The translations under genes were made by a program, and so were the position numbers. From Patescibacteria group bacterium (GTDB lineage: Bacteria; Patescibacteriota; Patescibacteriia; Patescibacteriales; UBA12075), in NCBI GenBank assembly GCA_034722035.1, contig JAYENK010000014.1, forward strand, positions 1 to 50,986: DNA of 50,986 nucleotides. Reading direction: 5' to 3'. This document shows, in pieces, positions 33,185 through 50,986 of the stretch. Within the stretch, counting starts at the first letter, position 1. Each line of letters opens with the position of its first letter. A model generated the notes under the pieces. The model had not been told where the DNA came from. It ran no database searches and was given only the letters and a program-made list of their open reading frames with translations.

Positions 33185-35026
33185 ATGAATGGAATAAAAA
33201 AAATTGTTGACTTGAGATACTCTTCTCAAGTAATTATAACTTCTATTGTCGCTATTTTAATGGTTGCGGGTATAACTGGCGCAACAACAATCGGCACAAA
33301 CATTTCAACTGACGGCAGTTTGACCGTTACAGGCACAACTACTATTGATAGTGGTCTTTTTTATGTTGATGTTACTAATGATAAGGTTGGAATAGGTTTA
33401 ACAAATCCAGATTCACAGCTTCATGTATATGATGCAAATGGTGGAATGATTGAGGTTTCAGATGGTGGTTCAGTTAGGGTAAAAATTAGTGCTACCTCAA
33501 CAGGTGGATACATTGGAACTAGTAATAATAATTCTTTTGGGATTAGAACAAATAATATTGATCAGATTTTTATTTTGGATACAACAGGAGGAAGTAATGC
33601 AAAGGTTGGGATTGGAACTACTACTCCCACAGCTAAGTTAACTATTCAAGGTGCCTCAGGTCAATCAATATTAAACATAGCATCCTCGTCTGGGTCTTCA
33701 ATTTTAAGTATCAATCAAAATGGCTATGTGGGAATAAACAGTCCATCGCCAATTTATCAGTTCCATGTTAATGGAGGGAATTATAATGCTATAGTTGGAT
33801 CAACTGATGGTGTAGGTTATTCGGGTGTAGTTGGATATGGTAACGATGGTCCAGGTGTTCATGGGCAGAGTGGTGGTTCAAGTGGAACTGGTGTTTCGGG
33901 TCAAGGACAAACGGGAGTGCATGGAGTTGGACCGAATGATGACTCTATCGGGGTCAGAGGAGTCAGCCATGGAGTAAATGGGATTGGTGGTAAATTTGAG
34001 GCTTCTTCTGGTTATGCCTTGATTACCACTGATGGTAATGTTGGAATTGGAACGGCTACTCCTCAATACATACTAGACGTTAATGGAGATGTGAATATTG
34101 CCAGTGGTAGCACATATAAAATAAATGGACAGACAGTTCTTTCAGCATCTTCGCAATTAGGTAATGTATATTTAGGAAGAAATGTTGGGGTGTCAAATAC
34201 CACTGGTTCGGAAAATGTTTTTATTGGCAATGATTCAGGGGAGTTAAATACAACAGGGTATAGAAATACATATTTAGGATCAGAGGCAGGTGATGCTAAT
34301 ACTACTGGCAGAGATAATGTTTTTGTTGGCAGTGCTTCAGCTAAGTCAAATGATATAGGTTATCAGAATGTTTTTGTTGGGAAATCATCAGGTGAATTAA
34401 GTGGGTCGTCTAATAATAATATATTTTTGGGTTATATGGCTGGATATAATGAAACAAGTTCAAATAGACTGTATATTACAAATTCAAACACTTCAGCAAC
34501 TTCAACGTTAATTTACGGTGAATTTGATAACAATATTTTATCCTTTAATGCGAATGTTGGGATTGGCACGACATCACCTCAAACCGATTTGCATGTTTTT
34601 GATGATCAGGCAAATGCTCAAATAACGATTGAAGGCTATAATCCAATGTTGAGATTTACCGATACCTTAGCAAGTGTTGGAGATAAAAATTGGGCCCTGT
34701 ATGGCTATAGAGATACATTCAGAGGAGTATTGAACTCGGATGATTGGTCTGGTGGAGATACTACCTGGCTAGAAGTAGTTAGAAATGGTGAATCTGATGT
34801 GACAAGCGTCAATTTTCCGAATGGAAATGTTGGAATAGGCACTACAACACCAGATGCTAATTTGCAGGTTTACGGTGGTGATAGCGCTACAAGCACATTG
34901 GAGGTTGGCGGAAGTTTAAGTAGTAGTGGCGCTTGTATAAAATTAAGAGACAGTGATGGCGCTGGCTGGAGTTACTGCACAATTTTAGACGGCACACTTT
35001 CATGCTCACAAGCATCATGCGAATAA
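33185..35026 (+). CDS. Membrane-anchored/secreted surface protein with repeated VGIGT..P...L.V modules (tail-fibre-like repeats) and a Cys-rich C-terminal tip
   Basis: 613 aa with an N-terminal TM segment. Six copies of the motif are present (KVGIGLTNPDSQLHVY, KVGIGTTTPTAKLTIQ, YVGINSPSPIYQFHVN, NVGIGTATPQYILDVN, NVGIGTTSPQTDLHVF, NVGIGTTTPDANLQVY). There is a G/S/T/N-rich repetitive core, and the protein ends GACIKLRDSDGAGWSYCTILDGTLSCSQASCE. Confidence 0.8.
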   Translation: MNGIKKIVDLRYSSQVIITSIVAILMVAGITGATTIGTNISTDGSLTVTGTTTIDSGLFYVDVTNDKVGIGLTNPDSQLHVYDANGGMIEVSDGGSVRVKISATSTGGYIGTSNNNSFGIRTNNIDQIFILDTTGGSNAKVGIGTTTPTAKLTIQGASGQSILNIASSSGSSILSINQNGYVGINSPSPIYQFHVNGGNYNAIVGSTDGVGYSGVVGYGNDGPGVHGQSGGSSGTGVSGQGQTGVHGVGPNDDSIGVRGVSHGVNGIGGKFEASSGYALITTDGNVGIGTATPQYILDVNGDVNIASGSTYKINGQTVLSASSQLGNVYLGRNVGVSNTTGSENVFIGNDSGELNTTGYRNTYLGSEAGDANTTGRDNVFVGSASAKSNDIGYQNVFVGKSSGELSGSSNNNIFLGYMAGYNETSSNRLYITNSNTSATSTLIYGEFDNNILSFNANVGIGTTSPQTDLHVFDDQANAQITIEGYNPMLRFTDTLASVGDKNWALYGYRDTFRGVLNSDDWSGGDTTWLEVVRNGESDVTSVNFPNGNVGIGTTTPDANLQVYGGDSATSTLEVGGSLSSSGACIKLRDSDGAGWSYCTILDGTLSCSQASCE

Positions 35027-35045
35027 TTATTTTTTAATATTTCCT

Positions 35046-36827
35046 ATGAAATTATATAAAACTTTTTTTCTATTATTTATATTTATTGCTTTGCCAGTAG
35101 TTGCAGCCACAAACGATTTGATTTTCAGTGAAGATATAACTGTTTCAGGCATCACTCTAGGCTCAGGCACAACTAACATGACTGTGTTTGCCAGTTCCTC
35201 TGCTGAAAGTTTTGATATAGCCAGCGGGGTATTTACGATAACCAATCCTGGGAGTTCGTTTAATGCTGGCTCTGCTAATGCTAGCGTGGGAATTATTATA
35301 ATATTAAAAAGTGGAGCAATGGAGAGTTGCACTGCTAATACTGTACCAGGAACTAGTTCAACAACACTACCAACAGCTAGTGGAGTTTATACAATAAGAC
35401 CGTTAGAGGCTACTAGTTGTAGCGGCTTATGTTCTTCTCTTACAGGTGCGGCAACATATAATGCCTACCCAACTTGCGGAGCGTCGACATGCAGTTCCGG
35501 ATACACCCTCTCAGGATCAGGTTCTAGCGCCACTTGTAGTGTGCAATCATCTGGAGGCGGAGGTGGTGGAAGTTATATTCCTCCATCAACCACAGCTGAT
35601 CAAGATGAAAATATTTCAACTATTCAATCATTTGTGACTTCTTCAGATGGAACTAGTCTTTCAAGCGAGACAAAAACAACTAAATCAGATAGTGGTGTTG
35701 TAGAAAAAGTTGAAATTGAAACAACAATTACCGCCTCAGAGGATGTGGCAGATACTCAGACCGTTAAGCTGGATTCGAGCGAAACCGCAGATGTAAAAGA
35801 AATAAAACTAGAAATGGAAAAAGAGATTATAAAAGAAATCATTGGCACTTCAACAAATAAAGAAATAAAAGTAAATATTATTAGCCAAGAAGCTACAACT
35901 GTTCAAAAAAATATTACCGCAAGGGGTGGTAAATTTTTGCTTGGATATGATATCTTTAGCATTGATATACAGACAGGCAAGAATAAAATAAATAAGTTTG
36001 TAAATCCACTAAAATTAACATTTGATATTAGCAATATTGCTGATAAATCTGATTTGAAAATATATTATTTTGACGAGTTAACTAATAAATGGGAAATAGC
36101 AGGAAATGGCGGAGTGATTGCAGGAGATAATATTATTGTGGAAGTATACCATCTAACTGATTTTAGTTTGATGAAAGACGTGGAAGAAGATATTGAAGTA
36201 GACGTAAATGAATTTATTGATAGAGAGAAGCAAATGCTACAAATTGAAGATGATGCAAATGCTGTGTTTATAAGTGGAATTGATTTGAATACAATACTTA
36301 TTCATAATAATGTAGAAAAAGATACAGAAATGCAATCAAAGGGTATGAATAAATATATTCCAGAGTTAAAAGAAAATATTTCAGGACTTACTATGAATAA
36401 TATTTATGCCATAAATAATTTTATTATGTATGGATCTATTACAACCGAAAAGCTGGGAGCGGGCGAGAGAGCGGGGGTTGTTAATTCTTATAAAAAAGCA
36501 TTTGGCAAATTGCCACTTACCAAAGAAGAGTGGAAAGATTGCATAGCTATTGGAAATGGCCGCTGGCCTAGAGAAACTAGCACAACAGCTGAAGCAACAG
36601 CAAGCGAAGAATTTAAGAAAATATATTTGCGCGATGCAAACATGGATAATCCGAATGACAACGCCGCAGTAACAATAATTTCATATGGACTTCGTCCATC
36701 TGACAGAAATACAGAATCAGAAAGAGCAGGTATTAATATTTTTAAGGGAATATATAAATATAATCCTACGTTAGCATTAGATTGGGATATTGTGAGGGCG
36801 ATTAGTTATTCAGGGGCGACTAGGTAG
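35046..36827 (+). CDS. Secreted hypothetical protein (signal peptide, Cys-rich segment, poly-Gly linker, acidic region, conserved-looking C-terminal domain)
   Basis: 593 aa. The signal peptide is MKLYKTFFLLFIFIALPVVAA. A CSGLCSS..CGASTCSSGY..CS segment precedes GGGGGG. It lies 20 nt after the upstream gene on the same strand. Confidence 0.75.
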   Translation: MKLYKTFFLLFIFIALPVVAATNDLIFSEDITVSGITLGSGTTNMTVFASSSAESFDIASGVFTITNPGSSFNAGSANASVGIIIILKSGAMESCTANTVPGTSSTTLPTASGVYTIRPLEATSCSGLCSSLTGAATYNAYPTCGASTCSSGYTLSGSGSSATCSVQSSGGGGGGSYIPPSTTADQDENISTIQSFVTSSDGTSLSSETKTTKSDSGVVEKVEIETTITASEDVADTQTVKLDSSETADVKEIKLEMEKEIIKEIIGTSTNKEIKVNIISQEATTVQKNITARGGKFLLGYDIFSIDIQTGKNKINKFVNPLKLTFDISNIADKSDLKIYYFDELTNKWEIAGNGGVIAGDNIIVEVYHLTDFSLMKDVEEDIEVDVNEFIDREKQMLQIEDDANAVFISGIDLNTILIHNNVEKDTEMQSKGMNKYIPELKENISGLTMNNIYAINNFIMYGSITTEKLGAGERAGVVNSYKKAFGKLPLTKEEWKDCIAIGNGRWPRETSTTAEATASEEFKKIYLRDANMDNPNDNAAVTIISYGLRPSDRNTESERAGINIFKGIYKYNPTLALDWDIVRAISYSGATR

Positions 36828-36857
36828 AATTTATTTTTGAGAAATTTTTTTATATTG

Positions 36858-36930
36858 TGCTCCCAGATGGAATTGAACCATCGACCCCCACGTTATAAGC
36901 GTGGTGCTCTAACCCCTGAGCTATGGGAGC
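36858..36930 (-). tRNA. tRNA with anticodon TAT (tRNA-Ile, AUA-reading)
   Basis: The reverse complement GCTCCCATAGCTCAGGGGTTAGAGCACCACGCTTATAACGTGGGGGTCGATGGTTCAATTCCATCTGGGAGCA gives a clean cloverleaf. The anticodon stem is CCACG/CGTGG and the loop is CTTATAA, so the anticodon is UAU. Confidence 0.85.
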
Positions 36931-36977
36931 TGACGAATATTATAATAGCAAGATAATCAAAAAAACTCAATATTTAT

Positions 36978-37021
36978 AAAATAGCACATTCTATGGAATA
37001 TTCTATAGAATGTGCTATTTT
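36978..37021. terminator. Near-perfect palindromic hairpin between nrnA and the tRNA
   Basis: ATAGCACATTCTAT (36981-36994) and ATAGAATGTGCTAT (37005-37018) form a perfect 14-bp stem, extendable, flanked by A/T runs. Confidence 0.6.
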
Positions 37022-37033
37022 ATAATAAATTTT

Positions 37034-38182
37034 TTATATTGATAATTTATTTAACTCAAGTTTAATTTTTTCGATTATTTCTTTTTCAGAATTATTAATA
37101 CCTTGTTTTATTTTAATTTTAGCTAATTGTTTGGTTCCGCCGGGCTTATATTCCTTTACCAGATTAAGCGAATTTACGGTTTTGGTAGAGTAGATTAAAA
37201 TTTCAGATTCTTTGTTTTTTTTCCTAGTTGTTTCGTAGATAAGAACAATGATTTTGGCATCAGGAATATTTATCATGAGTTCGTCAATAACATCGTTTAG
37301 ATCATTTTTGTCGGTGTTGGTTTTTTGAAAATCAGTTTCAGCCAGCACACTCCAGATCAATTTATTATTCATTTCACTTTTGAGGCGGGCCAAGATTCGC
37401 CCCCAGAGCTTAAGAATATTGATTGAGCGGGAGCGATAGAGTCGATTAACGATTTCTTGCCGGCGTCCACCTATTGCAACCAGCTGAGAAGAGGCGGAAA
37501 GCGCTTGCGGAGTAACATTTTGCGTTTTAAAGCTTCTGGTTTTGGAAATAATACCGGCAAGCAGGCAAGTGGCAATGTCTTCGTCAATTAAATCACGGGA
37601 GATGTTGGTAAACAAATTGAATAATATTTCCGCGCTGGAAACAGCCGTGAGCTCAATTAGATTGATTTGTCCGTAGCTTTCGTTATTGGGATGATGATCG
37701 ATATTAATCAATGGCACCTGGTAAAAGAATTCAGTGTCATTGTCGTAAATTGCGCCCAGAGCTTCTAAGTCCGGCGTATCAATCGTGATGATCAGATTAT
37801 ATTTAAATTCGCCGGAATGGGTTTTAACGTCGTCGGAACTAAAGAAGCCTCCTTTGGGGGAAATAATAAAATTTAATTTGTCGTTTTTTATTTTGTATTT
37901 AATTTGTCTGACCTGTGTATTTGTTATATCCACTGAAACAATAAATTTGCGCAGGTTATTCAATGAATTTTGAATCAAGTCAAAACTTGGTAAGAAATTA
38001 TAGCTCGTGCTTTCATCAAAACATTCGGCCGCGATAGTGGCGTTTTTGTCCATTTTTTTTAGAAGCAAATAAAAAGCCAAAGAAGACGCAATCGCGTCCC
38101 CATTCCAGGTTTTTTTGAAAGTGATTAAAATATTATTCGCTTTTTTAATTTGTTTTAAAATTTGCTGATCTAGGTTTAACAT
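37034..38182 (-). CDS. nrnA: DHH/DHHA1 family phosphoesterase (NrnA-like oligoribonuclease/pAp phosphatase)
   Basis: NGDAIASSLAF (DxD region), the IDHH motif (NIDHHPNN) and GGRRQ.. in the C-terminal DHHA1-like part. 382 aa. Confidence 0.8.
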   Translation of the reverse strand: MLNLDQQILKQIKKANNILITFKKTWNGDAIASSLAFYLLLKKMDKNATIAAECFDESTSYNFLPSFDLIQNSLNNLRKFIVSVDITNTQVRQIKYKIKNDKLNFIISPKGGFFSSDDVKTHSGEFKYNLIITIDTPDLEALGAIYDNDTEFFYQVPLINIDHHPNNESYGQINLIELTAVSSAEILFNLFTNISRDLIDEDIATCLLAGIISKTRSFKTQNVTPQALSASSQLVAIGGRRQEIVNRLYRSRSINILKLWGRILARLKSEMNNKLIWSVLAETDFQKTNTDKNDLNDVIDELMINIPDAKIIVLIYETTRKKNKESEILIYSTKTVNSLNLVKEYKPGGTKQLAKIKIKQGINNSEKEIIEKIKLELNKLSI

Positions 38183-38317
38183 AATTACTCAATATATATT
38201 AATAATGTACTAGTGTCAAGGATAAAATGCAATATATGACAGTAAAAAGTTTTCTTGCCAAAATTAGCTAATAATGATAATGTTTTAGCAGAATAAGTTT
38301 AGAATTAGGATAAAAAA

Positions 38318-39259
38318 ATGATTAATAATTTGTCGAATATTAGTAAAAAGGAGGCGAGTATTTTAAAAACACTCGTCTTTTTTGATATGTTTGATTTTCC
38401 TCTTACTGCTTTTGAGTTGTGGCAATATTCATGTATAGAGTGTGATTTAGGTGAATTAATCGCTGTTTTGGATAATTCAGAGTATTTAAAAAGGAAGATA
38501 AGCGTAAAAAATATTTTTTATTGTCTAAGGGATCGAGAAGAAATAATTTCGATTCGTTTGGCGCGTTATCATTCAAGCGCGCGCAAATTTAAAAAAGCCA
38601 AGAGTTTTATTTATTTATTTCGTTTGTTTCCCTGGATAGAAATGATCGCTATGGCAAATGTAATCGGAGCAGACAATTTGCGTGATGAGAGCGATATCGA
38701 TTTGTTTATAATTACTTCATCAAAGCGAATCTGGATTACACGATTTTTTTGCATTTTGATTACAAAATTATTTAATGCCAGACCGAAGCCGGGCAAGAAG
38801 AGGGATAAGATTTGTTTAAGTTTTTATGTTGCTCGTGACGGCTTAAATTTAAAAAATTTGATGCTTGCGGATGATGTTTATTTTAAACATTGGTTAATAT
38901 CACTGATGCCGTTACTGGATAGAAAAAATACTTATAAAAAATTTATTAAGAAAAATTTTTGGATCAAAAAAGATTTTCCGAACTGGGAAGAGGTGAAAAC
39001 AGTTGAGAATAGGAAAATAAAAAATATAAAAAATATTATATATTTAGAGATATTTGATTTGTTTTTTGGTGGGCTTGATCAAACGGTAAAAAAATTGCAA
39101 CTAAAATTGTTAGCGCCGGAATTAAAAAAGAAATTAAATAAAGACACCAGCGTTGTTATGAGTGACCAAGTTTTAAAAATGTATTCAAATGACAGGAGAG
39201 AAAGTTATAAAAAAAGATATAACAATAAGTTGAAAGTTTATAAAGTTGAAAGTTTATAA
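38318..39259 (+). CDS. Hypothetical protein with a possible nucleotidyltransferase-fold core
   Basis: 313 aa. MANVIGADNLRDESDIDLFIITS resembles the G[SA]....(D/E)SD(I/L)DL motif of Pol-beta-type nucleotidyltransferases. Otherwise unassigned. Confidence 0.5.
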   Translation: MINNLSNISKKEASILKTLVFFDMFDFPLTAFELWQYSCIECDLGELIAVLDNSEYLKRKISVKNIFYCLRDREEIISIRLARYHSSARKFKKAKSFIYLFRLFPWIEMIAMANVIGADNLRDESDIDLFIITSSKRIWITRFFCILITKLFNARPKPGKKRDKICLSFYVARDGLNLKNLMLADDVYFKHWLISLMPLLDRKNTYKKFIKKNFWIKKDFPNWEEVKTVENRKIKNIKNIIYLEIFDLFFGGLDQTVKKLQLKLLAPELKKKLNKDTSVVMSDQVLKMYSNDRRESYKKRYNNKLKVYKVESL

Positions 39260-39266
39260 AGATTGC

Positions 39267-40574
39267 ATGAAAGATAATATAAAAAAAATTATAGAATATG
39301 GTATATATCTTCTTGTATTTATTTTGCCCTTGCAGACGCGTTGGATTTTTTCCCCTGGAGAGTTTAATGGCGGTTACAGCGAATACTTTACCTATAGTTT
39401 ATATGGTTTTGATATTTTGTTGTTTATTTTGATTGGCTTAGAGGGCACAAGTATTATAATAAATAAAAAAGACAAGACAATCAAAGCACCGGTATTGTGG
39501 ATTTTATTGGGAATATTTGAGTTTATTTGTTTTATTTCGATTTTTTTCGCGCTTGATCGTACTTTGGCTGTTTTTGTTTATGTTCGACTTCTTTTTGTTT
39601 TTGGTTTTTTCTTTGTGATTATCAAAAGCAAGTATGATAAAAATAAAATATTTTTGAGTTTTATCGCCAGTGCTTTTTTTCAATCATTATTTGTTGTTTG
39701 GCAATTTGTTACTCAGTCCGGTTTTGCGAATAAATGGCTGGGTCTAGCTAAGCATGATCCGGCCGAGCTTGGTGTGTCTGTTGTAGAAGCTGTGGGCGCT
39801 AGCGGACACTCTGAGCGTTGGCTCCGTGCTTATGGCTCGCTTGATCATCCTAATATGCTGGGTGGATTCTTAGCACTTGCCTTAATTTTGATAATGTTTT
39901 ATCGGATAAAACAAAACAAGAAAGTTCATTTATTTTTTATTTTTGCTTATGTTGTAATCGGATTTGCTTTGGTTTTTTCTTTTTCTCGTTCGGCCTGGCT
40001 TGGTCTTCTACTTGGCCTCTTGATAATTGCGTTAATTTCGATTAAGCGCCGAGCCTTGCAAGCGCAGAAAATTATTGCTCAATCGATTCTGATGATTAGT
40101 GTGATATTTTTTGCCTTATTTTTAATCTATCCGAATCTTTTTATGACAAGAGTTAGCGCGGACAGTCGTTTGGAAAATATTTCAAAAGAGGAGCGAATAA
40201 GCGCGATTGATACGGCGCAGAAAATTAGTCAAGAATATTCCGCCATTGGCACCGGTATTGGTAACTATACCAAGGCTCAGGCGGAAATAAAGAAATTACA
40301 GTATTCTTATAAATTGCAGCCAGTGCATAATGTTTTTTTATTGATAAGAAGTGAGACCGGGATATTTGGAATTTTGGTATTTTTAGTAATTTTGCTCTAT
40401 TATTTACAAATTATTATCAAATCAAAGGAAAATATATATTTGATTGGGGGATTTATATTAATTTTGATTATATTTATGTTTGACCATTGGCTTTGGTCAT
40501 TGCATTTTGGGCTCATGTTATTAGCTTTTATTAGTGGAGGAGTAATAAAATTAATTTATAGTAAAGAATTTTAA
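39267..40574 (+). CDS. O-antigen ligase/polymerase-like (Wzy_C) polytopic membrane protein. The track start is TTG at 39246; ATG 39267 is preferred.
   Basis: About 10-12 predicted TM segments. FSFSRSAWLGLLLGLLI matches the SR.AWLG motif region of O-antigen ligase family proteins. Confidence 0.7.
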   Translation: MKDNIKKIIEYGIYLLVFILPLQTRWIFSPGEFNGGYSEYFTYSLYGFDILLFILIGLEGTSIIINKKDKTIKAPVLWILLGIFEFICFISIFFALDRTLAVFVYVRLLFVFGFFFVIIKSKYDKNKIFLSFIASAFFQSLFVVWQFVTQSGFANKWLGLAKHDPAELGVSVVEAVGASGHSERWLRAYGSLDHPNMLGGFLALALILIMFYRIKQNKKVHLFFIFAYVVIGFALVFSFSRSAWLGLLLGLLIIALISIKRRALQAQKIIAQSILMISVIFFALFLIYPNLFMTRVSADSRLENISKEERISAIDTAQKISQEYSAIGTGIGNYTKAQAEIKKLQYSYKLQPVHNVFLLIRSETGIFGILVFLVILLYYLQIIIKSKENIYLIGGFILILIIFMFDHWLWSLHFGLMLLAFISGGVIKLIYSKEF

Positions 40575-40586
40575 GCTTGGTTTATA

Positions 40587-40664
40587 ATTATTCGCATGTG
40601 CCCTATTTAGCTTGTCCTGAGCGGAGCCGAAGGATAGAGGGGCTCACGCGAAGCGTGATAACAC
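40587..40664 (-). repeat. Dispersed repeat copy U3 (with a 28-nt internal insertion)
   Basis: The reverse complement GTGTTATCACGCTTCGCGTGAGCCCCTCT[ATCCTTCGGCTCCGCTCAGGACAAGCT]AAATAGGGCACATGCGAATAAT aligns with U1 on both sides of the bracketed insertion. Confidence 0.75.
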
Positions 40665-40725
40665 TAATATTGCAAAAAATTTTACTCTTTTTGTGACAAT
40701 AAAGTAATATAATTAATTTTAATAT

Positions 40726-40805
40726 ATTATAATATAATATAGATAATTATAATATAATATAGATAATTATAATATAATATAGATAATTATAATATAATAT
40801 GATTA
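40726..40805. repeat. Tandem repeat, 20-nt unit AGATAATTATAATATAATAT x3 plus partial copies
   Basis: Identical units lie at 40741-40760, 40761-40780 and 40781-40800, flanked by partial copies. Each unit contains TATAAT. Confidence 0.85.
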
Positions 40806-40862
40806 ATAATAATAGTGTATTATAGTATTTAGTTAAATATAGAGAATTGTGGATAACAAAGC

Positions 40863-40892
40863 TTGACAATAGACGACAAAATAGTTTATAAT
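40863..40892 (+). promoter_or_regulatory. Candidate promoter of the HTH-FN3-giant protein operon
   Basis: TTGACA (40863-40868), 18 nt, TATAAT (40887-40892), with a second TATAAT at 40893-40898. It is followed by ATCCCCATG, as at the promoter of the 48381 gene. Confidence 0.45.
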
Positions 40893-40912
40893 TATAATAT
40901 CATCCCCATGAT

Positions 40913-40973
40913 GTAATCCGAAAAAATAGCCTCGACGTTCTATTCTTTGAGAATGTCGAGGTTTCGGCATTAC
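40913..40973 (+). promoter_or_regulatory. Two-tier hairpin in the putative 5' leader of the 41100 operon
   Basis: The outer stem is GTAATCCGAAA/TTTCGG(C)ATTAC (11 bp, one bulge). The inner stem is CCTCGACGTTC/GAATGTCGAGG (11 bp) with a 10-nt loop. Confidence 0.4.
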
Positions 40974-41066
40974 TTTGCTTTAATTTATAATAAACAAAAA
41001 ATAAAAATTAAATTTTGCATCCCTTTTAACATTACATTGTCAGGACATGTGAATAGTTGGATAAAT

Positions 41067-41117
41067 AATTATTCGTATGTCCCACATTTGTAGTGTGGGT
41101 TGGCGAAGTCAATAACA
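41067..41117 (-). repeat. Dispersed repeat copy U4, overlapping the start of the HTH gene
   Basis: On the plus strand, AATTATTCGTATGTCCCACATTTGTAGTGTGGGTTGGCGAAGTCAATAACA aligns with the plus strand of U2, GGTATTCGCATGTCTCGTATTCGTAGTGCGGGTCAGCGAAGTTGATAACA. The upstream GGACATGTGAATA (41044) forms an inverted repeat with its TATTCGTATGTCC. Confidence 0.7.
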
Positions 41118-41294
41118 GTGTTTAGATCAGACGACATTTTAACCCCAAAGGAAGTCGCAAAGATGCTTAAAGTTAGCACGCGCACAGTTTACCGCTGGAT
41201 TGACAGTGGTGATCTTAAAGTTGCCCGGATCGGTCGCAAGACCTACCGGGTTTTTGAGTCTGATCTAAAAAAGTTTATTAGGAAGTTTATGTAG
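41100..41294 (+). CDS. Excisionase-family (MerR-like) helix-turn-helix DNA-binding protein. TTG start in the track; the start is uncertain.
   Basis: LTPKEVAKMLKVSTRTVYRWIDSGDLKVARIGRKTYRVFESDLKKFI is the typical excisionase-family DNA-binding domain pattern (L...E.A..L.VS..T.YR....G.L......G....R....L..F). Confidence 0.75.
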   Translation: MAKSITVFRSDDILTPKEVAKMLKVSTRTVYRWIDSGDLKVARIGRKTYRVFESDLKKFIRKFM

Positions 41295-43297: not shown

Positions 43298-43322
43298 AGA
43301 AAATAAAGTTGAAAATTATAAA

Positions 43323-46300
43323 ATGAAATATACAAGACTAACAATTCTAAGTTTAATTGTCCTCGCTGTGTTTGGGGTTTCTTCAGCTATGGCTCAGACT
43401 GGATCTCTTCTCAATTTTACCGGTAAAGTAACAAATTTGGATGGAACGGAAGTGGCGGATGGAGCTTATGATTTTGTTTATCGCTTGTATGATACGCCGA
43501 GCGGGGGGACAGCGCTTTGGACAGAAACACTAAGCGCCTCTACTCGTTTTGTGGCAACTGTTGACAGTATTACTACTCTGGCGACTAGCACACGAATTGA
43601 TTATAGCGTTTCTTCCGCTACTTCCACTTTAGGTGTCGGACAATATTTATCTACTTACGGTTCAAGTGATGCCGCCTTAATTACAGATTATAATAGTATT
43701 GGTACTTATTTATTTGTTGCAAGTTCTTCGCTTGTAATAAGCGCGGGAGACGAAATAAGCAATAAACCTTTTGTTGAGGGTGGTGTGATTGCCGAGAATT
43801 TGGGAACAGTTAGCGATATATCCGATGTTGATTTTTTACAGACACTTTATTTGGAAGTTGAATTTAATGGAGAAATTATGCGTCCGCGCAAGCTGTTAAC
43901 CAGGGCTGCGTCTGCTTTTGATACTTCTCGTTTTGGTGGTAAAACCGAAAGCCAATATGCTACTTTGGATGAAAATGAGATCGTTACAGGGGAGTGGAGT
44001 TTTAATAATATTCTTAGTATTGCGACCGGTTCTGCCACTACCGCCCTTACTGTGGTGCAAAATGGCTCTGGAAGTCTTGTGGAAATAAAGCGTGGAGCGA
44101 CTACATCCTTTGCGGTGTTGAATGACGGGCGAGTGCAATTTGAAAATTATACCTTCCCATTAGCAAACGGTTTACCCGGTTATGTTTTGAAAGCGACTGC
44201 TGGGGGGCAACTAGAATGGGCGGTAGATTTTGCCGGAGGTTTTGGAACAGAAGGAAAGACTTTGTGGGCAACTACTTCAGATGAATTAATAATTTATCCA
44301 ATTGATACGTCGTATGTCACCGTTCTTGGCAATAATGCTACTTCAACTCTAGATGGGCAAATATTTGAAGTGCAAGGTTCGTCTTTGTTTGATCGGGTAA
44401 ATATTAGCAATCAATCAGAGCTTAGGTTTTATGATGCGGACAATTCTAATTATATGAGTTTGCGCGCTAGCTCGACTTTAACTTCAAATTATGTTTTGAT
44501 TTTGCCTAGAGACGCCGGAACGGACGGGATGTCCCTCGTGACTGATGGAAATGGGAATTTGCGCTGGGAGGCTGGTAGTCAGCTTATTGAGCAAGAAATT
44601 ATCGATTTTGGCTTTATTAAAGGTTTAACTCTTGGCAATCTATATGATGTTTCGACCTCATCTTTGTCTATAAACGATGTAGTTTATTGGACCGGTGTCG
44701 AGTGGCAAACCACCGCTACTAGCACTTGGGATACAAATACTGGTTGGACTGCGCTTACCGATATGAGTTTAAGTAACGGTTATATCTATACCGGATATTT
44801 GGGATCGCCAATTGCGACTTCCAGTATATTTATTGACGTAATCACAAAGAATGTCGGCATCGGTACCACCACTCCGGATTCACTTTTCCATGTTGATGGG
44901 GATGGTACTTTTGATCGACTTTGTATTGGTGGAACTTGTATTGACGAATGGGGAAGTGCCGGTTCACTCGATTCAACTGCAGTTAGTATCGGTGGAGTTG
45001 CCACTTGGTATGATGCGGATACTTTGACGGCCTCCACTTCAATTAATGTTGCTTATGGCGGAACCGGTAAACAATCTTGGACACAGTACGCAATTCCGTA
45101 TTTAACTGATTCTAATACTTTTGGTGAAATTACAATTGGTAATTCCAGCTATGTTTTGGCGGTAAATGGTACTCAGGACGGTTATACTTGGATCGATGCT
45201 TCTTCGACCGGCGCGACCTACCAATTTAATGCGGAGTATTCACCGGCACAAAGCGGAATTATTCAGATTTACGCCACTTCTACCGCTGGCAATGATTTTC
45301 AGATTATCAGTAATGCCAATATTCACACATTCTATTTGCCTGATGCTTCTTCTTCGGCCCGCGGACTCTTGACTGGCAGTGATTGGAGTACTTTTAATAA
45401 TAAATGGGATGATTTGGCAGATATGACGCTTGATACTGGATTTGTTTATGTCGGTTATGGCAATGACCCGATTGCCACCTCTACTATTTATATTGACACT
45501 GGTTTGAATTATGTTGGCATTGGCACCACTACGCCGGACACGCTTTTTCATGTTGACGGAGCCGGTTCCTTTTCTTCGCTTTGTATTAACGGGGATTGTA
45601 AAATTGACTGGGCTAGCGCTGGACCGATTGATGGCGGAGGCGGAGCTGATGAGATCGCATTTTGGTCTGATTCTGATACTTTAAGCTCTATCAGTAAAGG
45701 TGCAACCAATACTGTGTTTTATATTGACGCTAGCGGCAATTATGCCTGGACGGCGACAAGTACTTGGATCCATGATGAGGTAACATTAACCGGCGCAAGA
45801 AACTATATTACAATATCAGATCAAAATATCAGTGTGGGCGAAGTTGATATTTCGGATGACACTAATTTAACGGTTACCGCAACCGGCATTGAACGACTCG
45901 ATGATGCTATTGTTCTTACAGATGACTATCTAATTCCGCGGAGTGGAAGTACTACTAATTGGAACAATTTCTTTGATACTCCAAACACGGTAATTACAGA
46001 TGGAAATAATATCACTTGGTCTGGCAATACATTGAACGTTACTGACATTTGGTGGGACAATCTTGATGATATGACGCTTGTTAGCGGTAATGTCTATATC
46101 GGTTATGGTGGTATCCCGGTTGCAACTTCAACTGTATTTATCGATACTGCTTTAAATTATGTTGGAATCGGGACAACAACACCGAATACAATATTTCATG
46201 TTGATGGAAGGGGTACTTTTGATGAAATTTGTTTTGGTTCTGATTGTCAGAGCGATTGGGCCTCGGCCGGAGCTTTTGACGGTTCTGGTACAGATGGAGA

Positions 46301-47174
46301 GCCGGCGGTTTGGGTAGATGGCAACACACTTACTAGTACAAGTTCAATTAACGTAGCTTATGGCGGTACTGGCCGGCAAACTTTGAGCGATGGTGGAGTA
46401 TTATTGGGAGCCGGTTCTGGACCGATAAATATTTTGGCTGTATCCAACGCGGGCGAAATTATGATAGGGGACGGTGTGGGCGGACCGACAGTTTTGGCGG
46501 CGTTTACAGCCGAAGACGGAGCGCTCAAAGCGCAATATGGCGGAATCGGAACCAGTTCAGCCGTTTGGAACGGTGTTGCCGTGATAAATAATGGAATATG
46601 GTCGGCCAGTTCGGCATTATCAATCGCTTATGGCGGAACCGGTGCGAATAATGCTTCAAGCGCACGGGCTAATTTAGACCTTAAATCAATATATGATTAT
46701 GGAATTAATTTTGTTGCTACTAGTGGTTATGTTTGGATGAGTGATGGAGATGGGCGCGGTGAATGGGTGGCTACTTCTAGCTTAGGTGTAGGCGAATCCG
46801 GTGGTGGGATGAATGTTTCGGTATTTGTAGGTACAACTACAGTTACATATGATGGTTATTTTGCCAGTAGTACATACGAGGGTTATGAAGCGGCTAATTA
46901 TATTTGTGACGCAGAGTATCCCGGTTCACATTTTTGCCGTACTTATGATTTGTTGGTGACAGCTGAACAGCAAGATGTGTCAGGTTGGGGCGGTGAAGGT
47001 TGGGTAGCGGAAGGACCGCCAGGATTTACATCCGATTCGAACGATTGTAATGGTTGGACTGATAACGATAGTGCTAAATATGGTGCTTGGTGGGAATATA
47101 CGCCGAATGGGGGAATGGGTTGGTTGATATATTGTAATTTTTCTAAACCAATATCGTGTTGTTCGAGGCAATAA
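43323..47174 (+). CDS. Giant secreted modular surface protein (1283 aa) with three ~215-aa modules containing the (Y)VGIGTTTPD.LFHVDG..F..LC..G.C..DW.SAG motif and a Cys-rich C-terminal domain
   Basis: The signal peptide is MKYTRLTILSLIVLAVFGVSSAMA|Q. Module cores repeat at aa ~500, ~715 and ~930 (NVGIGTTTPDSLFHVDGDGTFDRLCIGGTCIDEWGSAG; YVGIGTTTPDTLFHVDGAGSFSSLCINGDCKIDWASAG; YVGIGTTTPNTIFHVDGRGTFDEICFGSDCQSDWASAG). INVAYGGTG(K/R)Q also repeats. The C-terminus is ..YICDAEYPGSHFCRTYDLL...SNDCNGWTD....GAWWEY...GWLIYCNFSKPISCC. Confidence 0.85.
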   Translation: MKYTRLTILSLIVLAVFGVSSAMAQTGSLLNFTGKVTNLDGTEVADGAYDFVYRLYDTPSGGTALWTETLSASTRFVATVDSITTLATSTRIDYSVSSATSTLGVGQYLSTYGSSDAALITDYNSIGTYLFVASSSLVISAGDEISNKPFVEGGVIAENLGTVSDISDVDFLQTLYLEVEFNGEIMRPRKLLTRAASAFDTSRFGGKTESQYATLDENEIVTGEWSFNNILSIATGSATTALTVVQNGSGSLVEIKRGATTSFAVLNDGRVQFENYTFPLANGLPGYVLKATAGGQLEWAVDFAGGFGTEGKTLWATTSDELIIYPIDTSYVTVLGNNATSTLDGQIFEVQGSSLFDRVNISNQSELRFYDADNSNYMSLRASSTLTSNYVLILPRDAGTDGMSLVTDGNGNLRWEAGSQLIEQEIIDFGFIKGLTLGNLYDVSTSSLSINDVVYWTGVEWQTTATSTWDTNTGWTALTDMSLSNGYIYTGYLGSPIATSSIFIDVITKNVGIGTTTPDSLFHVDGDGTFDRLCIGGTCIDEWGSAGSLDSTAVSIGGVATWYDADTLTASTSINVAYGGTGKQSWTQYAIPYLTDSNTFGEITIGNSSYVLAVNGTQDGYTWIDASSTGATYQFNAEYSPAQSGIIQIYATSTAGNDFQIISNANIHTFYLPDASSSARGLLTGSDWSTFNNKWDDLADMTLDTGFVYVGYGNDPIATSTIYIDTGLNYVGIGTTTPDTLFHVDGAGSFSSLCINGDCKIDWASAGPIDGGGGADEIAFWSDSDTLSSISKGATNTVFYIDASGNYAWTATSTWIHDEVTLTGARNYITISDQNISVGEVDISDDTNLTVTATGIERLDDAIVLTDDYLIPRSGSTTNWNNFFDTPNTVITDGNNITWSGNTLNVTDIWWDNLDDMTLVSGNVYIGYGGIPVATSTVFIDTALNYVGIGTTTPNTIFHVDGRGTFDEICFGSDCQSDWASAGAFDGSGTDGEPAVWVDGNTLTSTSSINVAYGGTGRQTLSDGGVLLGAGSGPINILAVSNAGEIMIGDGVGGPTVLAAFTAEDGALKAQYGGIGTSSAVWNGVAVINNGIWSASSALSIAYGGTGANNASSARANLDLKSIYDYGINFVATSGYVWMSDGDGRGEWVATSSLGVGESGGGMNVSVFVGTTTVTYDGYFASSTYEGYEAANYICDAEYPGSHFCRTYDLLVTAEQQDVSGWGGEGWVAEGPPGFTSDSNDCNGWTDNDSAKYGAWWEYTPNGGMGWLIYCNFSKPISCCSRQ

Positions 47175-47182
47175 AGTATAAT

Positions 47183-47230
47183 GCGAATCTGCGAATTTAT
47201 GCAAATATGGCGAATACAAATTATGCGAAT
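47183..47230. repeat. Cluster of four GCGAAT motifs (plus one degenerate GCAAAT) downstream of the giant gene
   Basis: ATGCGAATCTGCGAATTTATGCAAATATGGCGAATACAAATTATGCGAATAA has GCGAAT at 47183, 47191, 47210 and 47225. The same core occurs in the U repeats and the 9346 palindrome. Confidence 0.6.
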
Positions 47231-47272
47231 AAAGTTTTTTAAAAAAATAAAATAAAGAAGTTTGTCAAGAGT

Positions 47273-47322
47273 AAGTATTAAGCGAGAAAGAGAAAAATGC
47301 TTTGCATTTTTGCTTAATACTT
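47273..47322 (+). terminator. Two-tier hairpin, likely terminator of the giant gene
   Basis: The outer stem is AAGTATTAAGC/GCTTAATACTT. The inner stem is AAAAATGC-TTT-GCATTTTT. Confidence 0.45.
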
Positions 47323-47353
47323 AATATTAGATACTTAATACTGATTAAACGAT

Positions 47354-48187: not shown

Positions 48188-48335
48188 CTAGAATGAGTTC
48201 AAAAATTTGTTATTAATATAAATTTAATGATAAATTTGTGAATTTGTAATTACACAATTCACTCTGGCACAAATACAACAAAATAATCCGGCCTCCTAGC
48301 GCTTTTTTTCCTAGCTAGGAGGCTGGAGAGGAGAA

Positions 48336-48365
48336 TTGAATCTTTTAGGGTGTATATGGTATAAT
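48336..48365 (+). promoter_or_regulatory. Candidate promoter of the second giant gene; the predicted leader is very short
   Basis: TTGAAT (48336-48341), 18 nt, TG at 48357-48358, TATAAT (48360-48365). The ATG at 48381 is only 15 nt after the -10, within AATCCCCATG. Confidence 0.45.
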
Positions 48366-48380
48366 ATAATATTAATCCCC

Positions 48381-50986
48381 ATGCAAAATCTCGATTTTGT
48401 AAAATTAAATAAAGAGAAAAAAAGTAAAAAGCTGATTTTAAAATTTTCGGTAATTTTTGCTATTTTAACGGTAATTTTTTTTATAACAGCCGTGCAGGCA
48501 GCTTGGTCGCCGGAAAAATATTGGGTGACGGACAGCGCTAATTGCCCGGAAGATTATAGAGGAGTTAAGGGTGGAGCCGGCACTGAGGTTTGTGGTGTGG
48601 ATTTTAATAATGAAAACATTTATTTTTATGATACTAACAGCTTAAGCGTGCCAATCGCGTCTAGCACTACTTATAGTGCTAATAGTGTTAGTACCAGTAC
48701 CGGCGGTTATTACTTGGATTGTTATTCTAATGATGGTTCTAGCCCGCATTGTGATGTGAGCGGTAATTGGTATTGTCAGCGTGATTCGTCATGTTATTCC
48801 AATAATAGACAGACTACCTGCGTTGCCGGAGAAACAGCTTCTTCAACTTGTGCTAATTGCCGGACGAATTATATGGATTGTGATGCTAATACTGTAGATT
48901 GTGAAGTTTATGATGGACAGGCCAGTTCGACCGCGACAAACGTTGATTGGGATGCCGGTTGTACTTTTATATGTGATAGCGGATACCTGGATTGTGACGG
49001 ATCCGGTGATGGTTCGGACAGTGACTGTGAAATAGATATGTACGACACTGCCAGTTCAACCGCAACTCATGTCGAATATGCCGGTACCTGTAGTACTTGG
49101 GAATGTGAGGACGGTTGGATTGATTGTGACGGTGATGGGACCGGCTCGGATGGTTCTTGCGAAGTTGAACAGGACGGAATTTGTTTTGTTGGTGCTCTTA
49201 TGGGTACTTATATCGGTTGCAGTGGTGGTAGTGGTAATTGTGTGGTGGCATCGAGTACTTTTGTGACGGGCGAACTTAGTGAATTTGCGACTGACGATCC
49301 GCTACTTTGGGGTTATCAATACGGTGACGGGCCAATGATAAAGTTTACCAGCTATAATAGCTCGACTACCGGCGGGGTGTTTTTAGTGGAAAATGACGGT
49401 CGGGTCGGTATTGGCACTACTACTCTTGGCAGCGGTAATTTGCTTACAGTTGGTTTTGACTCAAATTCTCAATTTATTGTTAATAATTCCGGTGAGGTTG
49501 TTTCCGGTGCTTGGAAAGGTGATGTTGTCGGTCTTGATTATGGCGGACTTGGTACTAATTTGAGCGATCCGAACGCAGATAGGCTGCTTATTTGGGACGA
49601 TTCAAGCGGAAACATCACTTGGATATCGACTTCATCTTTGGAAACAGGCACTGTTGAAAATTCGCAGGGTGGCTGGACTCCGTATTATTCTTCTAATGGA
49701 AACGTTTTAACCGGCACGTCATCGATTTATTTTGATACTGCCGGCAATGTTGCAATCGGTCCGAATTCATATTTTAATTCTACTGGCTATATCGGCATCG
49801 GCACTACCACTCCGGATTCACTTCTTCATGTAGCCGGGACCGGTTCTTTTAATGAATTATGTTTTGGTTCGGATTGTGTGACAGATTGGAGTGGTGCCGG
49901 TTTACAAGGATTATCTCCGGTCACCGGTCAGCCGGCGGTTTGGGTTAATTCAAATACATTAACCGCTTCCGGCACGATTCAAACCGTTTACGGCGGAACC
50001 GGAAAACAGTCATGGGTTAGTGACCGGTTAATTTATTCAATTGACACTAACACTTTGGGCAATATTTCTAAAGGTGGAAACAACACTGTTTTCTATATTA
50101 ATTCATCTGGTAATTATACTTGGACCGCGACCAGTTCCTGGGATACCGATACCCAATTAGCCGAACAGGATATTACTGATTTTGGATTTATTAAAGGTCT
50201 TACTTTGGGCAATCTCTACGATGTCTCCACATCCTCTCTTGCCAGCAATGATGTTCTCTATTGGACTGGTACACAGTGGCAAACAACCGGCACCAGCACC
50301 TGGGATACCGATACTCAGATCTCTGACTCCGAGGTTGGTGTTTTTGGCTATATCAAAGGACTGACATTAGGTAATCTCTACGATGTCTCCACCTCTTCTC
50401 TTGCCAGTAACGATATTCTCTATTGGGATGGGGATTCCTGGGAAACTACCGCCACCAGCACCTGGACCCATGACAAAGTCACACTTAGTGGAACCGAAAA
50501 CTATCTCACCATATCGGATCAAGAAATTACAGTAAGCGAAATTGATATTTCCGAACACACTAATTTAACGGTTAGCGCCACCGGACTCACTCAAAATGAC
50601 GACGACATTGAATTGACCACAAAATATATCATCCCATTCTCCGCTTCTACTACGAACTGGAACAATTTTTTTGACACGCCAAGCACGGTTATCACTGATG
50701 GAGCTCATCTGACCTGGACCGATAACACTTTAGCGGTTGATGATGACTGGTGGGATAATCTGGATGAGATGGTTCTAAATACCGGTGAAATTTATGTCGG
50801 CTACGACAATATCCCGACCGGAACTAGCACCATCTTTGTTGACACTAGCCAAAATTACGTCGGCATCGGCACTACCACTCCGGATTCACTTCTTCATGTA
50901 GCCGGGACCGGTTCTTTTAATGAATTATGTTTTGGTTCGGATTGTGTGACAGATTGGAGTGGTGCCGGTTTACAAGGATTATCTCC
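48381..50986 (+). CDS. Second giant modular surface protein, 5' part (more than 868 aa, runs off the window); paralog of 43323..47174 with an additional N-terminal Cys-rich repeat region
   Basis: Frame 3 is open from ATG 48381 to the window end. The signal/anchor is KLILKFSVIFAILTVIFFITAVQA. Cys-rich repeats are present (C.SGYLDCDGSGDGSDSDCEI; CEDGWIDCDGDGTGSDGSCEV). Modules then follow with YIGIGTTTPDSLLHVAGTGSFNELCFGSDCVTDWSGAG (twice), TVYGGTGKQSW and FGFIKGLTLGNLYDVSTSSLASNDVLYW (twice), all matching the 43323 protein. Confidence 0.85.
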   Translation, partial: MQNLDFVKLNKEKKSKKLILKFSVIFAILTVIFFITAVQAAWSPEKYWVTDSANCPEDYRGVKGGAGTEVCGVDFNNENIYFYDTNSLSVPIASSTTYSANSVSTSTGGYYLDCYSNDGSSPHCDVSGNWYCQRDSSCYSNNRQTTCVAGETASSTCANCRTNYMDCDANTVDCEVYDGQASSTATNVDWDAGCTFICDSGYLDCDGSGDGSDSDCEIDMYDTASSTATHVEYAGTCSTWECEDGWIDCDGDGTGSDGSCEVEQDGICFVGALMGTYIGCSGGSGNCVVASSTFVTGELSEFATDDPLLWGYQYGDGPMIKFTSYNSSTTGGVFLVENDGRVGIGTTTLGSGNLLTVGFDSNSQFIVNNSGEVVSGAWKGDVVGLDYGGLGTNLSDPNADRLLIWDDSSGNITWISTSSLETGTVENSQGGWTPYYSSNGNVLTGTSSIYFDTAGNVAIGPNSYFNSTGYIGIGTTTPDSLLHVAGTGSFNELCFGSDCVTDWSGAGLQGLSPVTGQPAVWVNSNTLTASGTIQTVYGGTGKQSWVSDRLIYSIDTNTLGNISKGGNNTVFYINSSGNYTWTATSSWDTDTQLAEQDITDFGFIKGLTLGNLYDVSTSSLASNDVLYWTGTQWQTTGTSTWDTDTQISDSEVGVFGYIKGLTLGNLYDVSTSSLASNDILYWDGDSWETTATSTWTHDKVTLSGTENYLTISDQEITVSEIDISEHTNLTVSATGLTQNDDDIELTTKYIIPFSASTTNWNNFFDTPSTVITDGAHLTWTDNTLAVDDDWWDNLDEMVLNTGEIYVGYDNIPTGTSTIFVDTSQNYVGIGTTTPDSLLHVAGTGSFNELCFGSDCVTDWSGAGLQGLS
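49792..49918 (+). repeat. Copy 1 of a perfect 127-bp (at least) intragenic direct repeat
   Basis: Base-for-base identical to 50860-50986 (checked by eye). The offset is 1068 bp, or 356 codons, in frame. Confidence 0.9.
50860..50986 (+). repeat. Copy 2 of the perfect intragenic direct repeat (truncated by the window end)
   Basis: Identical to 49792-49918. The identity may continue beyond the window. Confidence 0.9.

Follow-up and report, generated by a model that had tools for sequence, protein, structure and literature searches.

Positions 33185-50986 of a 50,986-nt stretch of a Patescibacteria (candidate phyla radiation, CPR) metagenome-assembled genome, hereafter the window (position 1 is its first letter), likely encode two separately transcribed sets of chromosomal cell-surface fibers that resemble mosaic adhesive trimers (MATs) and phage tail fibers. 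Unit A consists of p613, which encodes a tail-fiber-like protein, and its secreted partner p593. Unit B runs from a helix-turn-helix (HTH) gene through the FN3-repeat gene p641 to two large fiber genes, g1 (protein p1283) and g2 (protein p868), with a BRO-N gene between g1 and g2. An earlier, sequence-only reading had taken the region for a single 18-kb accessory locus. It is instead composed of two transcription units, because p613-p593 has a promoter-like site of its own and ends before a tRNA-Ile gene, a hairpin and a DHH-family gene, and the HTH operon begins 4 kb further on. Nor is unit B accessory, as it is conserved across genomes. The window proteins and their closest relatives carry the source names 'Patescibacteria group bacterium', 'Candidatus Falkowbacteria' or 'Candidatus Parcubacteria', and the remainder of the window holds ordinary chromosomal genes (23S and 5S rRNA genes, tRNA genes, a starch/glycogen synthase-type glycosyltransferase, VanW and HSP20).

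The claim that the region is dominated by five large secreted or anchored proteins was borne out: open reading frames (ORFs) of 613, 593, 641, 1283 and 868 amino acids are present, and each of the encoded proteins has a single hydrophobic segment, located at the N-terminus, and a Ser+Thr content of 20-24%. In p613, p1283 and p868 this segment was identified as a 19-mer. Pfam found no enzyme domain in any of the five, in agreement with the earlier statement that enzyme-like motifs are lacking. Scans of Pfam, NCBIfam and PHROGs yielded no usable family name for p613, p593, p1283 or p868; weak PHROG tail-fiber matches were obtained for p613 and p1283, along with one far-sub-threshold NCBIfam match for p613.

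The link to known fibers begins with a short repeated motif. In a six-frame translation of the whole window, [VIL]G[IVL][GN]x..P occurs ten times (five copies in p613, three in p1283, two in p868 and none elsewhere), against an average of 0.16, and never more than 2, in fifty shuffles. The full module, in which LC..C..DW and then YGGTG follow the motif, is found only in p1283 and p868, and p613 carries only the VGIGTTTP...L.V part. Thus, of the module that three proteins had been said to share, the VGIGxxxP motif is common to p613, p1283 and p868, but the complete Cys/YGGTG module is restricted to the last two. A HMMER search aligned p613 with PDB entry 8ond_A, the crystal-structure sequence of Bdellovibrio Bd2133, through GNVGIGxxxPxxKLxV-type motifs (E 3.7e-5). 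In the study that solved six MAT fiber structures, this consensus is described as the capping loop, which lies at the edges of a trimeric, intertwined beta-helix and is common to phage S74 tail fibers, and the fiber tips are S74 chaperones or other adhesive folds, including a C-type lectin in Bd2740 (Caulton et al. 2024, PMC10769870). The window motif fits the capping loop V-G-G/N-pi-x-x-P-x-x-x-L of these MAT/S74 beta-helix fibers.

The relatives of p613 point the same way. There are 887 of them, carrying the source name 'tail fiber domain-containing protein'; most have Peptidase_S74 (PF13884), and they end in S74 or T9SS (type IX secretion system) sorting domains. Pfam found Peptidase_S74 in none of the window proteins, which places them in a non-S74 class, and p613 itself has no Pfam match of any kind and hence no S74 domain of its own. 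A 60-residue motif-centered profile, built only from non-CPR relatives of p613 (most of them S74-bearing), found p1283 (E 5.8e-13, nominal Z = 1e6), p868 (3e-12) and P0015, a g2-like fragment described below; in the g2 protein of locus L004 it found 12 sites, five of them exactly 250 residues apart. Together, the p613-Bd2133 match, the mostly S74-bearing relatives and the recovery of p1283 and p868 by the motif profile uphold the earlier comparison of the module with tail-fiber or adhesin beta-helical repeats. The matching family is adhesive, a role related to the one proposed from the sequence, rather than a family of unrelated known role. Some p613 relatives bear the JGI (Joint Genome Institute) name of trimeric autotransporter adhesin; this class was ruled out for lack of a YadA-type beta-barrel anchor domain.

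g1 starts with a signal peptide and a conserved N-domain (residues ~1-420), continues as a mosaic fiber with three VGIGTTTP-Cys modules (nt 44853, 45513 and 46161) and YGGTG motifs, and ends in a six-Cys C-type-lectin-like domain (about nt 46815-47171). Its 47 homologues all come from uncultured sources, and the taxon names given for them are Patescibacteria or unclassified 'bacterium'. A profile of the N-domain matches the N-termini of S74-bearing fibers from other phyla (P0105, E 1.8e-13; P0136; P0123); the N-termini of p613 and g2 differ from it. A profile of the C-terminal third of g1 matches the GGTGA..A..AR.NLGL motif of the phage tail fiber 7z47_D (E 5.5e-6), and a phmmer search of full-length p1283 against PDB sequences gave no match. 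An AlphaFold2 (AF2) model of g1, computed with 27 aligned homologues, is confident only over the last ~120 residues (pLDDT 80-93). When this tip was compared with the PDB by Foldseek, the top 50 structures were almost all C-type lectin-like or endostatin (probability up to 0.99, TMt 0.32-0.48). With moderate confidence, we assign the C-terminal domain of g1 a predicted C-type-lectin-like fold; six Cys and the motif W.AEGPPG..(6)..NDC.G are invariant in this domain. The motif, the N-domain and the non-S74-type tip place g1 in the broad MAT/S74 superfamily. Structure prediction of the C-terminal domains, which had been suggested as a check, was thus informative for the g1 tip but gave no PDB fold match for the C-terminal domain of p593.

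We propose that g1, g2 and p613 would form trimeric fibers on the cell surface, and we infer that these fibers may mediate attachment to a host or partner cell. Their architecture is like that of MATs and tail fibers, and their role is probably similar. Like the window proteins, the MATs of Bdellovibrio bacteriovorus (Bd2133, Bd2740; PMC10769870) are large, chromosomally encoded proteins with a signal peptide, the capping-loop motif V-G-I-G/N-x-x-x-P-x-x-x-L, mosaic exchangeable segments and non-S74 tips that include a C-type lectin fold; one of them, Bd2133, is matched directly by p613, and they belong to a bacterium living on other bacteria, a lifestyle presumed for the window organism too. 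Unlike MATs, the window fibers belong to Patescibacteria, which have no outer membrane, and share a fixed operon with genes for an HTH protein and an FN3 protein. In addition, g2 is 5-6 times longer than any MAT and starts with a Cys-rich domain instead of the MAT N-domain, and the window-type lectin-like end is conserved, not variable, and a Cys-rich-start gene comes after it. Patescibacteria were not found in the accessible supplementary text of Caulton et al. 2024 (PMC10769870).

S74 phage tail fibers and tailspikes (the T5 L-shaped fiber, 4UW8; K1F endosialidase, 3GW6), together with bacterial 'tail fiber domain-containing proteins', share with the window the p613 sequence family, the motif, a g1-type N-domain in S74-bearing members and the GGTGA..AR.NLGL motif, which is also present in phage tail fiber 7z47. 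They differ from the window proteins, which have no S74 domain, lie outside any phage genome and carry N-terminal signal or anchor segments. Very large surface proteins are also known from a CPR predator: the accessible text of Moreira et al. 2021 (PMC8080830) describes giant membrane or surface proteins of Vampirococcus lugosii (1392-4163 residues) that were proposed to act in host recognition and attachment. That text describes them through WD40, PKD, integrin, fibronectin and similar domains and reports no tail-fiber architecture or conserved gene pair for them. In the literature on Patescibacteria tail fibers, C-type lectins and giant proteins, we found general remarks on giant CPR surface proteins and no description of this operon. 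New relative to the literature found are the occurrence of such fibers in Patescibacteria, the fixed HTH-FN3-g1-g2 operon, a second fiber of five to six thousand residues and the lectin-end/Cys-start junction. For the way in which Patescibacteria recognize and hold their hosts, the conserved operon offers a concrete candidate. The link ties this operon to structurally understood recognition fibers, a class that now takes in Patescibacteria as well as proteins 5-6 thousand residues long.

Several points weigh against this reading. In the monomer AF2 model, confidence in the g1 shaft is low, with pLDDT <50 at residues 24-143 of the segment modeled, a Foldseek search of the g1 model against a viral library gave no significant match, and the Foldseek E-values behind the lectin-fold assignment range from 5e-3 to 0.1. 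The motif-profile test is partly circular, because a regular expression for the motif served as the seed of the profile. Trimerization, surface display and binding are all deduced from sequence, and the host-dependent lifestyle of the organism is assumed from its phylum. Finally, the lectin-like end is the best-conserved part of g1 (46-62% identity across classes). In phages and MATs, the tip that contacts the host receptor is usually the most variable part, and a conserved lectin-like end therefore argues against the g1 tip being the end that binds the host.

Proteins of this kind could also serve in the envelope without recognizing any partner, as S-layer-associated spacers, a protective coat or decoys that soak up phages. 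Strong conservation of both g1 termini would suit such a role, as would the presence of the p593 C-terminal domain on many secreted proteins, which is expected of an envelope-anchoring module; in the accessible text of PMC8080830, giant membrane proteins are proposed to give Vampirococcus its fibrous cell-surface look. We consider a purely structural or decoy function improbable, because the closest characterized relatives, MAT fibers and phage tail fibers, are recognition devices, mosaic shafts and block exchange between g1 and g2 are typical of diversifying pressure from a partner or an enemy, and a lectin-like terminal domain suggests ligand binding.

Gene order around g1 is maintained in other genomes (loci are cited below by L numbers). 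The order 313-aa gene, Wzy_C, HTH, FN3, g1, g2 is kept on two contigs of 1.27 and 1.03 Mb, and FN3, g1, g2 on a 0.49-Mb contig; the g2 orthologues across these three contigs have 5116, 5298 and 6008 residues. HTH-FN3-g1-g2 is present in L001 (where the contig ends after g1), L004, L005, L006, L013 and L022, and FN3-g1-g2 in more loci. Conservation of HTH-FN3-giant-BRO-giant as neighbors had been set beforehand as a check; HTH-FN3-g1-g2 is indeed kept, whereas the BRO-N gene occupies its place only here.

Scanning one genome per GTDB species with an alignment of the g1 C-terminus recovered 31 loci. Most are Patescibacteria-named (Falkowbacteria, Parcubacteria, Magasanikbacteria, Peribacteria and Shapirobacteria) and several are named only 'bacterium'; the four loci of other name (three 'Gammaproteobacteria' and one Devosia) are taken to be mis-binned. 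In 30 of the 31, the gene with the lectin-like end (46-62% identity) is followed directly by a gene that starts with the g2 Cys-rich domain (27-43% identity), and the stop and start of such pairs often overlap or lie a few bases apart. The window has the same order, lectin-ending g1 and then Cys-rich-start g2, with the BRO-N gene in between. Co-occurrence of FN3 and the g1 N-domain is mainly confined to the Falkowbacteria/Parcubacteria-type subset, and the HTH, Wzy_C and 313-aa genes were detected in fewer of the 31 loci, partly since many of these loci are short. L028 and L041 have an additional middle protein (625 and 896 residues, respectively) that combines a Cys-rich start with a lectin-like end, and after it comes one more Cys-rich-start protein. 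Conservation across classes is confined to the two end domains, and the place where they meet is always the junction between two genes.

Because the end domains meet at gene junctions, the middle proteins carry both and the conserved lectin-like end is unlike a receptor tip, we propose that the lectin-like end of g1 may dock onto the Cys-rich start of the following gene's product to give a serially assembled fiber. We put this forward tentatively, as possible rather than likely. The long tail fiber of phage T4 (gp34-gp35-gp36-gp37) is made of several proteins that are joined end to end and encoded by neighboring genes, and consecutive genes may likewise encode consecutive fiber segments here; the comparison is an analogy that claims no sequence relationship, and docking, unlike in T4, is hypothetical. 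The single exception among the 31 loci, L014 (1-2300), where a tRNA-synthetase-like gene comes after the lectin-ending gene, counts against docking, as does the existence of a simple rival. According to that rival, g1, g2 and the extra proteins of L028 and L041 would be independent tandem paralogous fibers with swapped end domains, and their order would record duplication history and co-regulation. g1 and g2 are in fact paralogous and exchange blocks, each fiber protein has its own N-terminal hydrophobic segment, and the existence of proteins with both end domains means that an ancestral fiber with a Cys-rich start and a lectin end could have duplicated in tandem. Tandem paralogy, however, leaves unexplained why the lectin end comes first and the Cys-rich start second in 30 of 31 loci, which span several classes and in which stop and start codons often overlap, and also why just these two domains are conserved across classes; we regard it as somewhat unlikely.

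If docking is extended to its limit, several Patescibacteria classes might build a cell-length multi-protein fiber, assembled in gene order from g1, optional middle units and a g2 of 2,000-6,000 residues, as the main device with which these ultra-small bacteria capture a host. Scaled from the 150 Å per 370 residues given for the Bd2133 tip (PMC10769870), g1 would be very roughly 50 nm long and a g2 of 5,000 residues very roughly 200 nm. This is a speculative extension that we judge unlikely as a whole. Were it true, gene-order docking would be a new assembly principle for bacterial surface fibers. The conserved gene order itself supplies a testable rule, a lectin-ending gene followed by a Cys-rich-start gene, with which such fibers could be found and dissected in any CPR genome.

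The second fiber gene is incomplete in the window. g2 begins with an N-terminal hydrophobic segment and a Cys-rich N-domain (residues ~40-340, 26 Cys), after which come fiber repeats with VGIGTTTP-Cys modules. A perfect 127-nt internal repeat (49792-49918 = 50860-50986) reaches the last base of the window, and the 54,105-nt source contig also carries P0015, an 855-residue fragment that is open at both ends and made of the same repeat units. The P0015 fragment and the repeat at the window end show that g2 is much longer than 868 residues and that the assembly is probably broken or collapsed within its repeats. Consistent with this, the N-terminus of the window g2 (residues 13-395) is orthologous to the N-termini of the 5116-, 5298- and 6008-residue proteins mentioned above. 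The Cys-rich domain is rare: of 1.84 billion representative clusters, 284 contain it, and among the matches listed it lies mostly at the N-terminus, in proteins of up to 5709 residues. Partial g2 orthologues gave no meaningful Pfam domains. In complete g2 proteins (2200-3179 residues), the only hydrophobic segment lies at the N-terminus and has an AxA site, 24 of the 24-25 Cys fall within the first 400 residues, and the tail is an acidic Pro/Glu/Thr stretch.

p1283 and p868 are paralogues, as had been claimed (37% amino acid identity over 644 residues, E 7e-111), and the DNA of their modules is 62-74% identical, close to the 70-75% given earlier. Both termini are conserved among g1 orthologues, and the middle differs in length and content, with the VGIGTTTP-Cys module present in only some. 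Mosaic block exchange between g1 and g2 is evident: the closest g1 orthologue, P0002, contains a 432-residue block that is 68% identical to the window g2 and not to the window g1. A related mosaic is found in L008, where the fiber that precedes the p593 orthologue has a p613 N-terminus joined to the g1/g2 Cys module.

Such exchange could in principle reflect the dedicated surface-variation system that the sequence-only reading had suggested, with modules acting as cassettes for programmed recombination or for hypermutation driven by a retroelement. The mosaic middle regions and the 100%-identical internal repeats of g2 would be expected of cassettes, and C-type lectin folds are the usual scaffold of the targets of diversity-generating retroelements (PMC11661182). 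The g1 gene of L007 is flanked by Avd-like small genes of the 23S_rRNA_IVP family (9473-9829 and 14056-14259), and no reverse transcriptase is among the called genes of that locus. We take the 23S_rRNA_IVP family to include the Avd accessory proteins of diversity-generating retroelements. In the window, however, we found no reverse transcriptase among the ORFs scanned, no invertase and no pair of template and variable repeats, and the lectin-like domain ranks with the best-conserved parts of g1, the opposite of a hypervariable target. A dedicated variation system is thus quite improbable, even though g1 and g2 have exchanged blocks, and the absence of a reverse transcriptase or repeat pair together with the conserved tip rules out a diversity-generating retroelement target for this window.

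The BRO-N gene between the two giants was correctly recognized from the sequence (Pfam Bro-N, 8.3e-12; phrog_15286, 3.6e-91), and its product is ~49% identical to proteins on small uncultured 'Bacteriophage sp.' contigs. A BRO match between g1 and g2 was not found in any other locus examined and was seen there only in the window. Elsewhere, a 66% identical relative lies just upstream of a g1-like gene in L039 (6514-7374), and in L010 (11204-12046) a Pfam Bro-N gene with no detected similarity to the window copy adjoins hsdM in a type I restriction-modification locus. The gene behaves like a mobile solo gene, which fits its having landed between g1 and g2. In our model it would be a later insertion with no role in the fibers, after which g2 would use its own promoter-like site.

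These phage affinities raise the question of whether the fiber genes, the HTH gene and the BRO-N gene are leftovers of a prophage, tailocin or other mobile element, with the fibers as virion parts. The HTH protein belongs to the excisionase family, the BRO-N protein has a full-length PHROG match and relatives on small phage-labeled contigs, the PHROG tail-fiber matches noted above exist, albeit weak, and unit A is flanked by tRNA-Val and tRNA-Ile beside a HigB-like/HTH-M78 gene pair. All of this is outweighed by other observations. The window yielded no gene for an integrase, capsid, terminase, portal, tail tube or baseplate, each of the five large proteins carries a hydrophobic signal or anchor segment at its N-terminus, p1283 gave no tblastn match in 50,697 phage genomes, and the BRO-N gene is absent from the g1-g2 gap elsewhere. 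Furthermore, on megabase-scale contigs HTH-FN3-g1-g2 keeps its chromosomal position, with RmuC, the 313-aa gene and Wzy_C beside it. A mobile-element remnant is very unlikely, and we rejected a prophage origin on the basis of the missing structural and integration genes in the window and the conserved chromosomal context.

The excisionase-type HTH gene opens the FN3 operon, as had been noted (Pfam HTH_17, 8.6e-18; TIGR01764, 6e-14); a probable GTG start at 41118 would give a protein of 58 residues. Copies that are 72-86% identical lie directly upstream of the FN3 gene in L001, L004, L005, L006, L013 and L022, and across these loci the HTH protein is more conserved than its neighbors. No integrase partner for an excisionase was found in the window. 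The lack of an integrase in the window and the fixed first position in six related loci make the HTH protein more likely a transcription factor than an excisionase, and it may control the fiber operon. Thus, of the small regulators attributed to the region, one conserved HTH gene remains, and the BRO-N gene is apparently inserted. The next gene encodes p641, whose FN3 repeats were confirmed by Pfam as about five FN3-like domains (Pur_ac_phosph_N, 4.5e-33, in four stretches; fn3, 3e-18); p641 orthologues (43-63% identity) are found upstream of g1 in 14 distinct relative loci.

Upstream of unit B, the 313-aa gene runs 14 nt into the Wzy_C gene, and the two are kept as a pair upstream of the fiber operon. 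Orthologues of the 313-aa protein (40-46% identity) adjoin Wzy_C in that position in L001, L004, L005, L013 and L018, and L026 has a weaker match (29% identity); the protein itself has no Pfam and no PDB sequence match. Enzymes of the Wzy_C family include protein O-oligosaccharyltransferases encoded beside pilin genes, and the pair could glycosylate the Ser/Thr-rich fiber shafts. Phased AT-rich arrays with 10/20-nt periods are found at the position equivalent to that of the window array in L004 (7263-7392), L005 (7168-7299) and L013 (6119-6173). In these four genomes the arrays lie ~150-350 nt upstream of the conserved HTH gene, and their sequences do not align. The window array sits just upstream of a perfect sigma-70 consensus, and array and promoter together are flanked by the two copies of a 25-nt direct repeat, which are 84% identical (40584-40608 and 41065-41089). 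The arrays might act as operator sites or form curved DNA; an Rfam search of the region upstream of the HTH gene gave no RNA match.

Unit A encodes a second, smaller fiber. p613 has an N-terminal hydrophobic anchor or signal, its five VGIGxxxP motifs, a G-x-x-N-T/S repeat block and a short four-Cys C-terminal tip. p593 is composed of a signal peptide, then a Cys-rich N-terminal part, a linker rich in S/T and, at the C-terminus, an all-alpha domain of ~200 residues (36213-36824). Orthologues of p593 (47-75% identity) always have a fiber gene before them in differing genomic contexts, one of which contains transposases and a type I restriction-modification operon. The recurrence of p593 and a fiber gene in unrelated contexts makes unit A a portable two-gene cassette. 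The C-terminal domain of p593 was modeled by AF2 as 11 helices with a pLDDT of 95.4 and contains an internal repeat (ERAG..SY..AFGK.P....W.D and SERAGI.IFK.IY..P...DWD.VRAI). Pfam has no model for it, a profile search of PDB sequences gave no match, and Foldseek matched its fold to no PDB structure (best E 2.1, TM <= 0.24). The same ~200 residues are common to >70 secreted Patescibacteria proteins with varied N-terminal domains, among them Fn3_assoc, CHB_HEX_C, TSP3, PG_binding_1, CARDB, PKD and YDG. This Patescibacteria-wide domain would anchor its carriers to the envelope, and p593 would then hold the base of the fiber. A confidently predicted all-alpha domain with no PDB match thus marks many secreted CPR proteins.

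Table 1 Features of the two fiber units and their surroundings in window coordinates
Feature	Position	Strand	Basis
Promoter-like site 5' of p613, TAGACA-17-TATAAT preceded by TG	33120..33148	+	11/12 consensus matches, pattern only
p613, tail-fiber-like protein, 613 aa	33185-35026	+	ORF + homology
p593, secreted partner, 593 aa	35046-36827	+	ORF + homology
tRNA-Ile(TAT)	36857-36930	-	ARAGORN
Hairpin with 20-bp stem between unit A/tRNA-Ile and the minus-strand DHH gene, likely boundary/terminator	36976..37023		Terminator-like scan
DHH-family gene	37034-38182	-	Gene order
313-aa gene, function without assignment	38318-39259	+	Conserved neighbor upstream of unit B
Wzy_C gene (O-antigen ligase / O-oligosaccharyltransferase-like), polytopic membrane protein	39246-40574	+	Pfam PF04932 8.7e-19
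AT-rich spacer, 525 nt	40575-41099		Between Wzy_C and HTH_17 genes
AT-rich 20-nt tandem array, 4.4 copies, 10-nt sub-period, upstream of unit B promoter	40726..40814		TRF
Perfect sigma-70 consensus 5' of HTH gene, TTGACA-18-TATAAT	40863..40892	+	12/12 matches, pattern only
HTH_17 / excisionase-family gene, 64-aa ORF, first gene of unit B	41100-41294	+	Pfam HTH_17, TIGR01764
p641, FN3-repeat protein, 641 aa	41298-43223	+	Pfam
g1 (p1283), 1283 aa	43323-47174	+	ORF + homology
BRO-N gene, 277 aa	47354-48187	+	Pfam Bro-N, PHROG
Promoter-like site 5' of g2, TTGAAT-18-TATAAT preceded by TG	48336..48365	+	10/12 matches, pattern only
g2 (p868), 868 aa, 5' part only, runs past window end	48381-50986	+	ORF + homology

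Three features of the surrounding chromosome are recorded here in their own right. On the minus strand at 31276-32663, a HigB-like toxin gene (weak Pfam match, 6e-4) is paired with an HTH_3 + Peptidase_M78 (ImmA/IrrE-type) gene, and the pair sits between tRNA-Val and unit A. At 20831-25188, the 23S rRNA match, at 3100 nt, is longer than its 2925-nt model; the 23S and 5S genes are separated by two ORFs, one of them for a LAGLIDADG endonuclease (24012-24458), and the window has no adjoining 16S gene. The tRNA-Ile between the two units carries the anticodon TAT according to ARAGORN; in most bacteria, AUA is read instead by a modified CAU tRNA.

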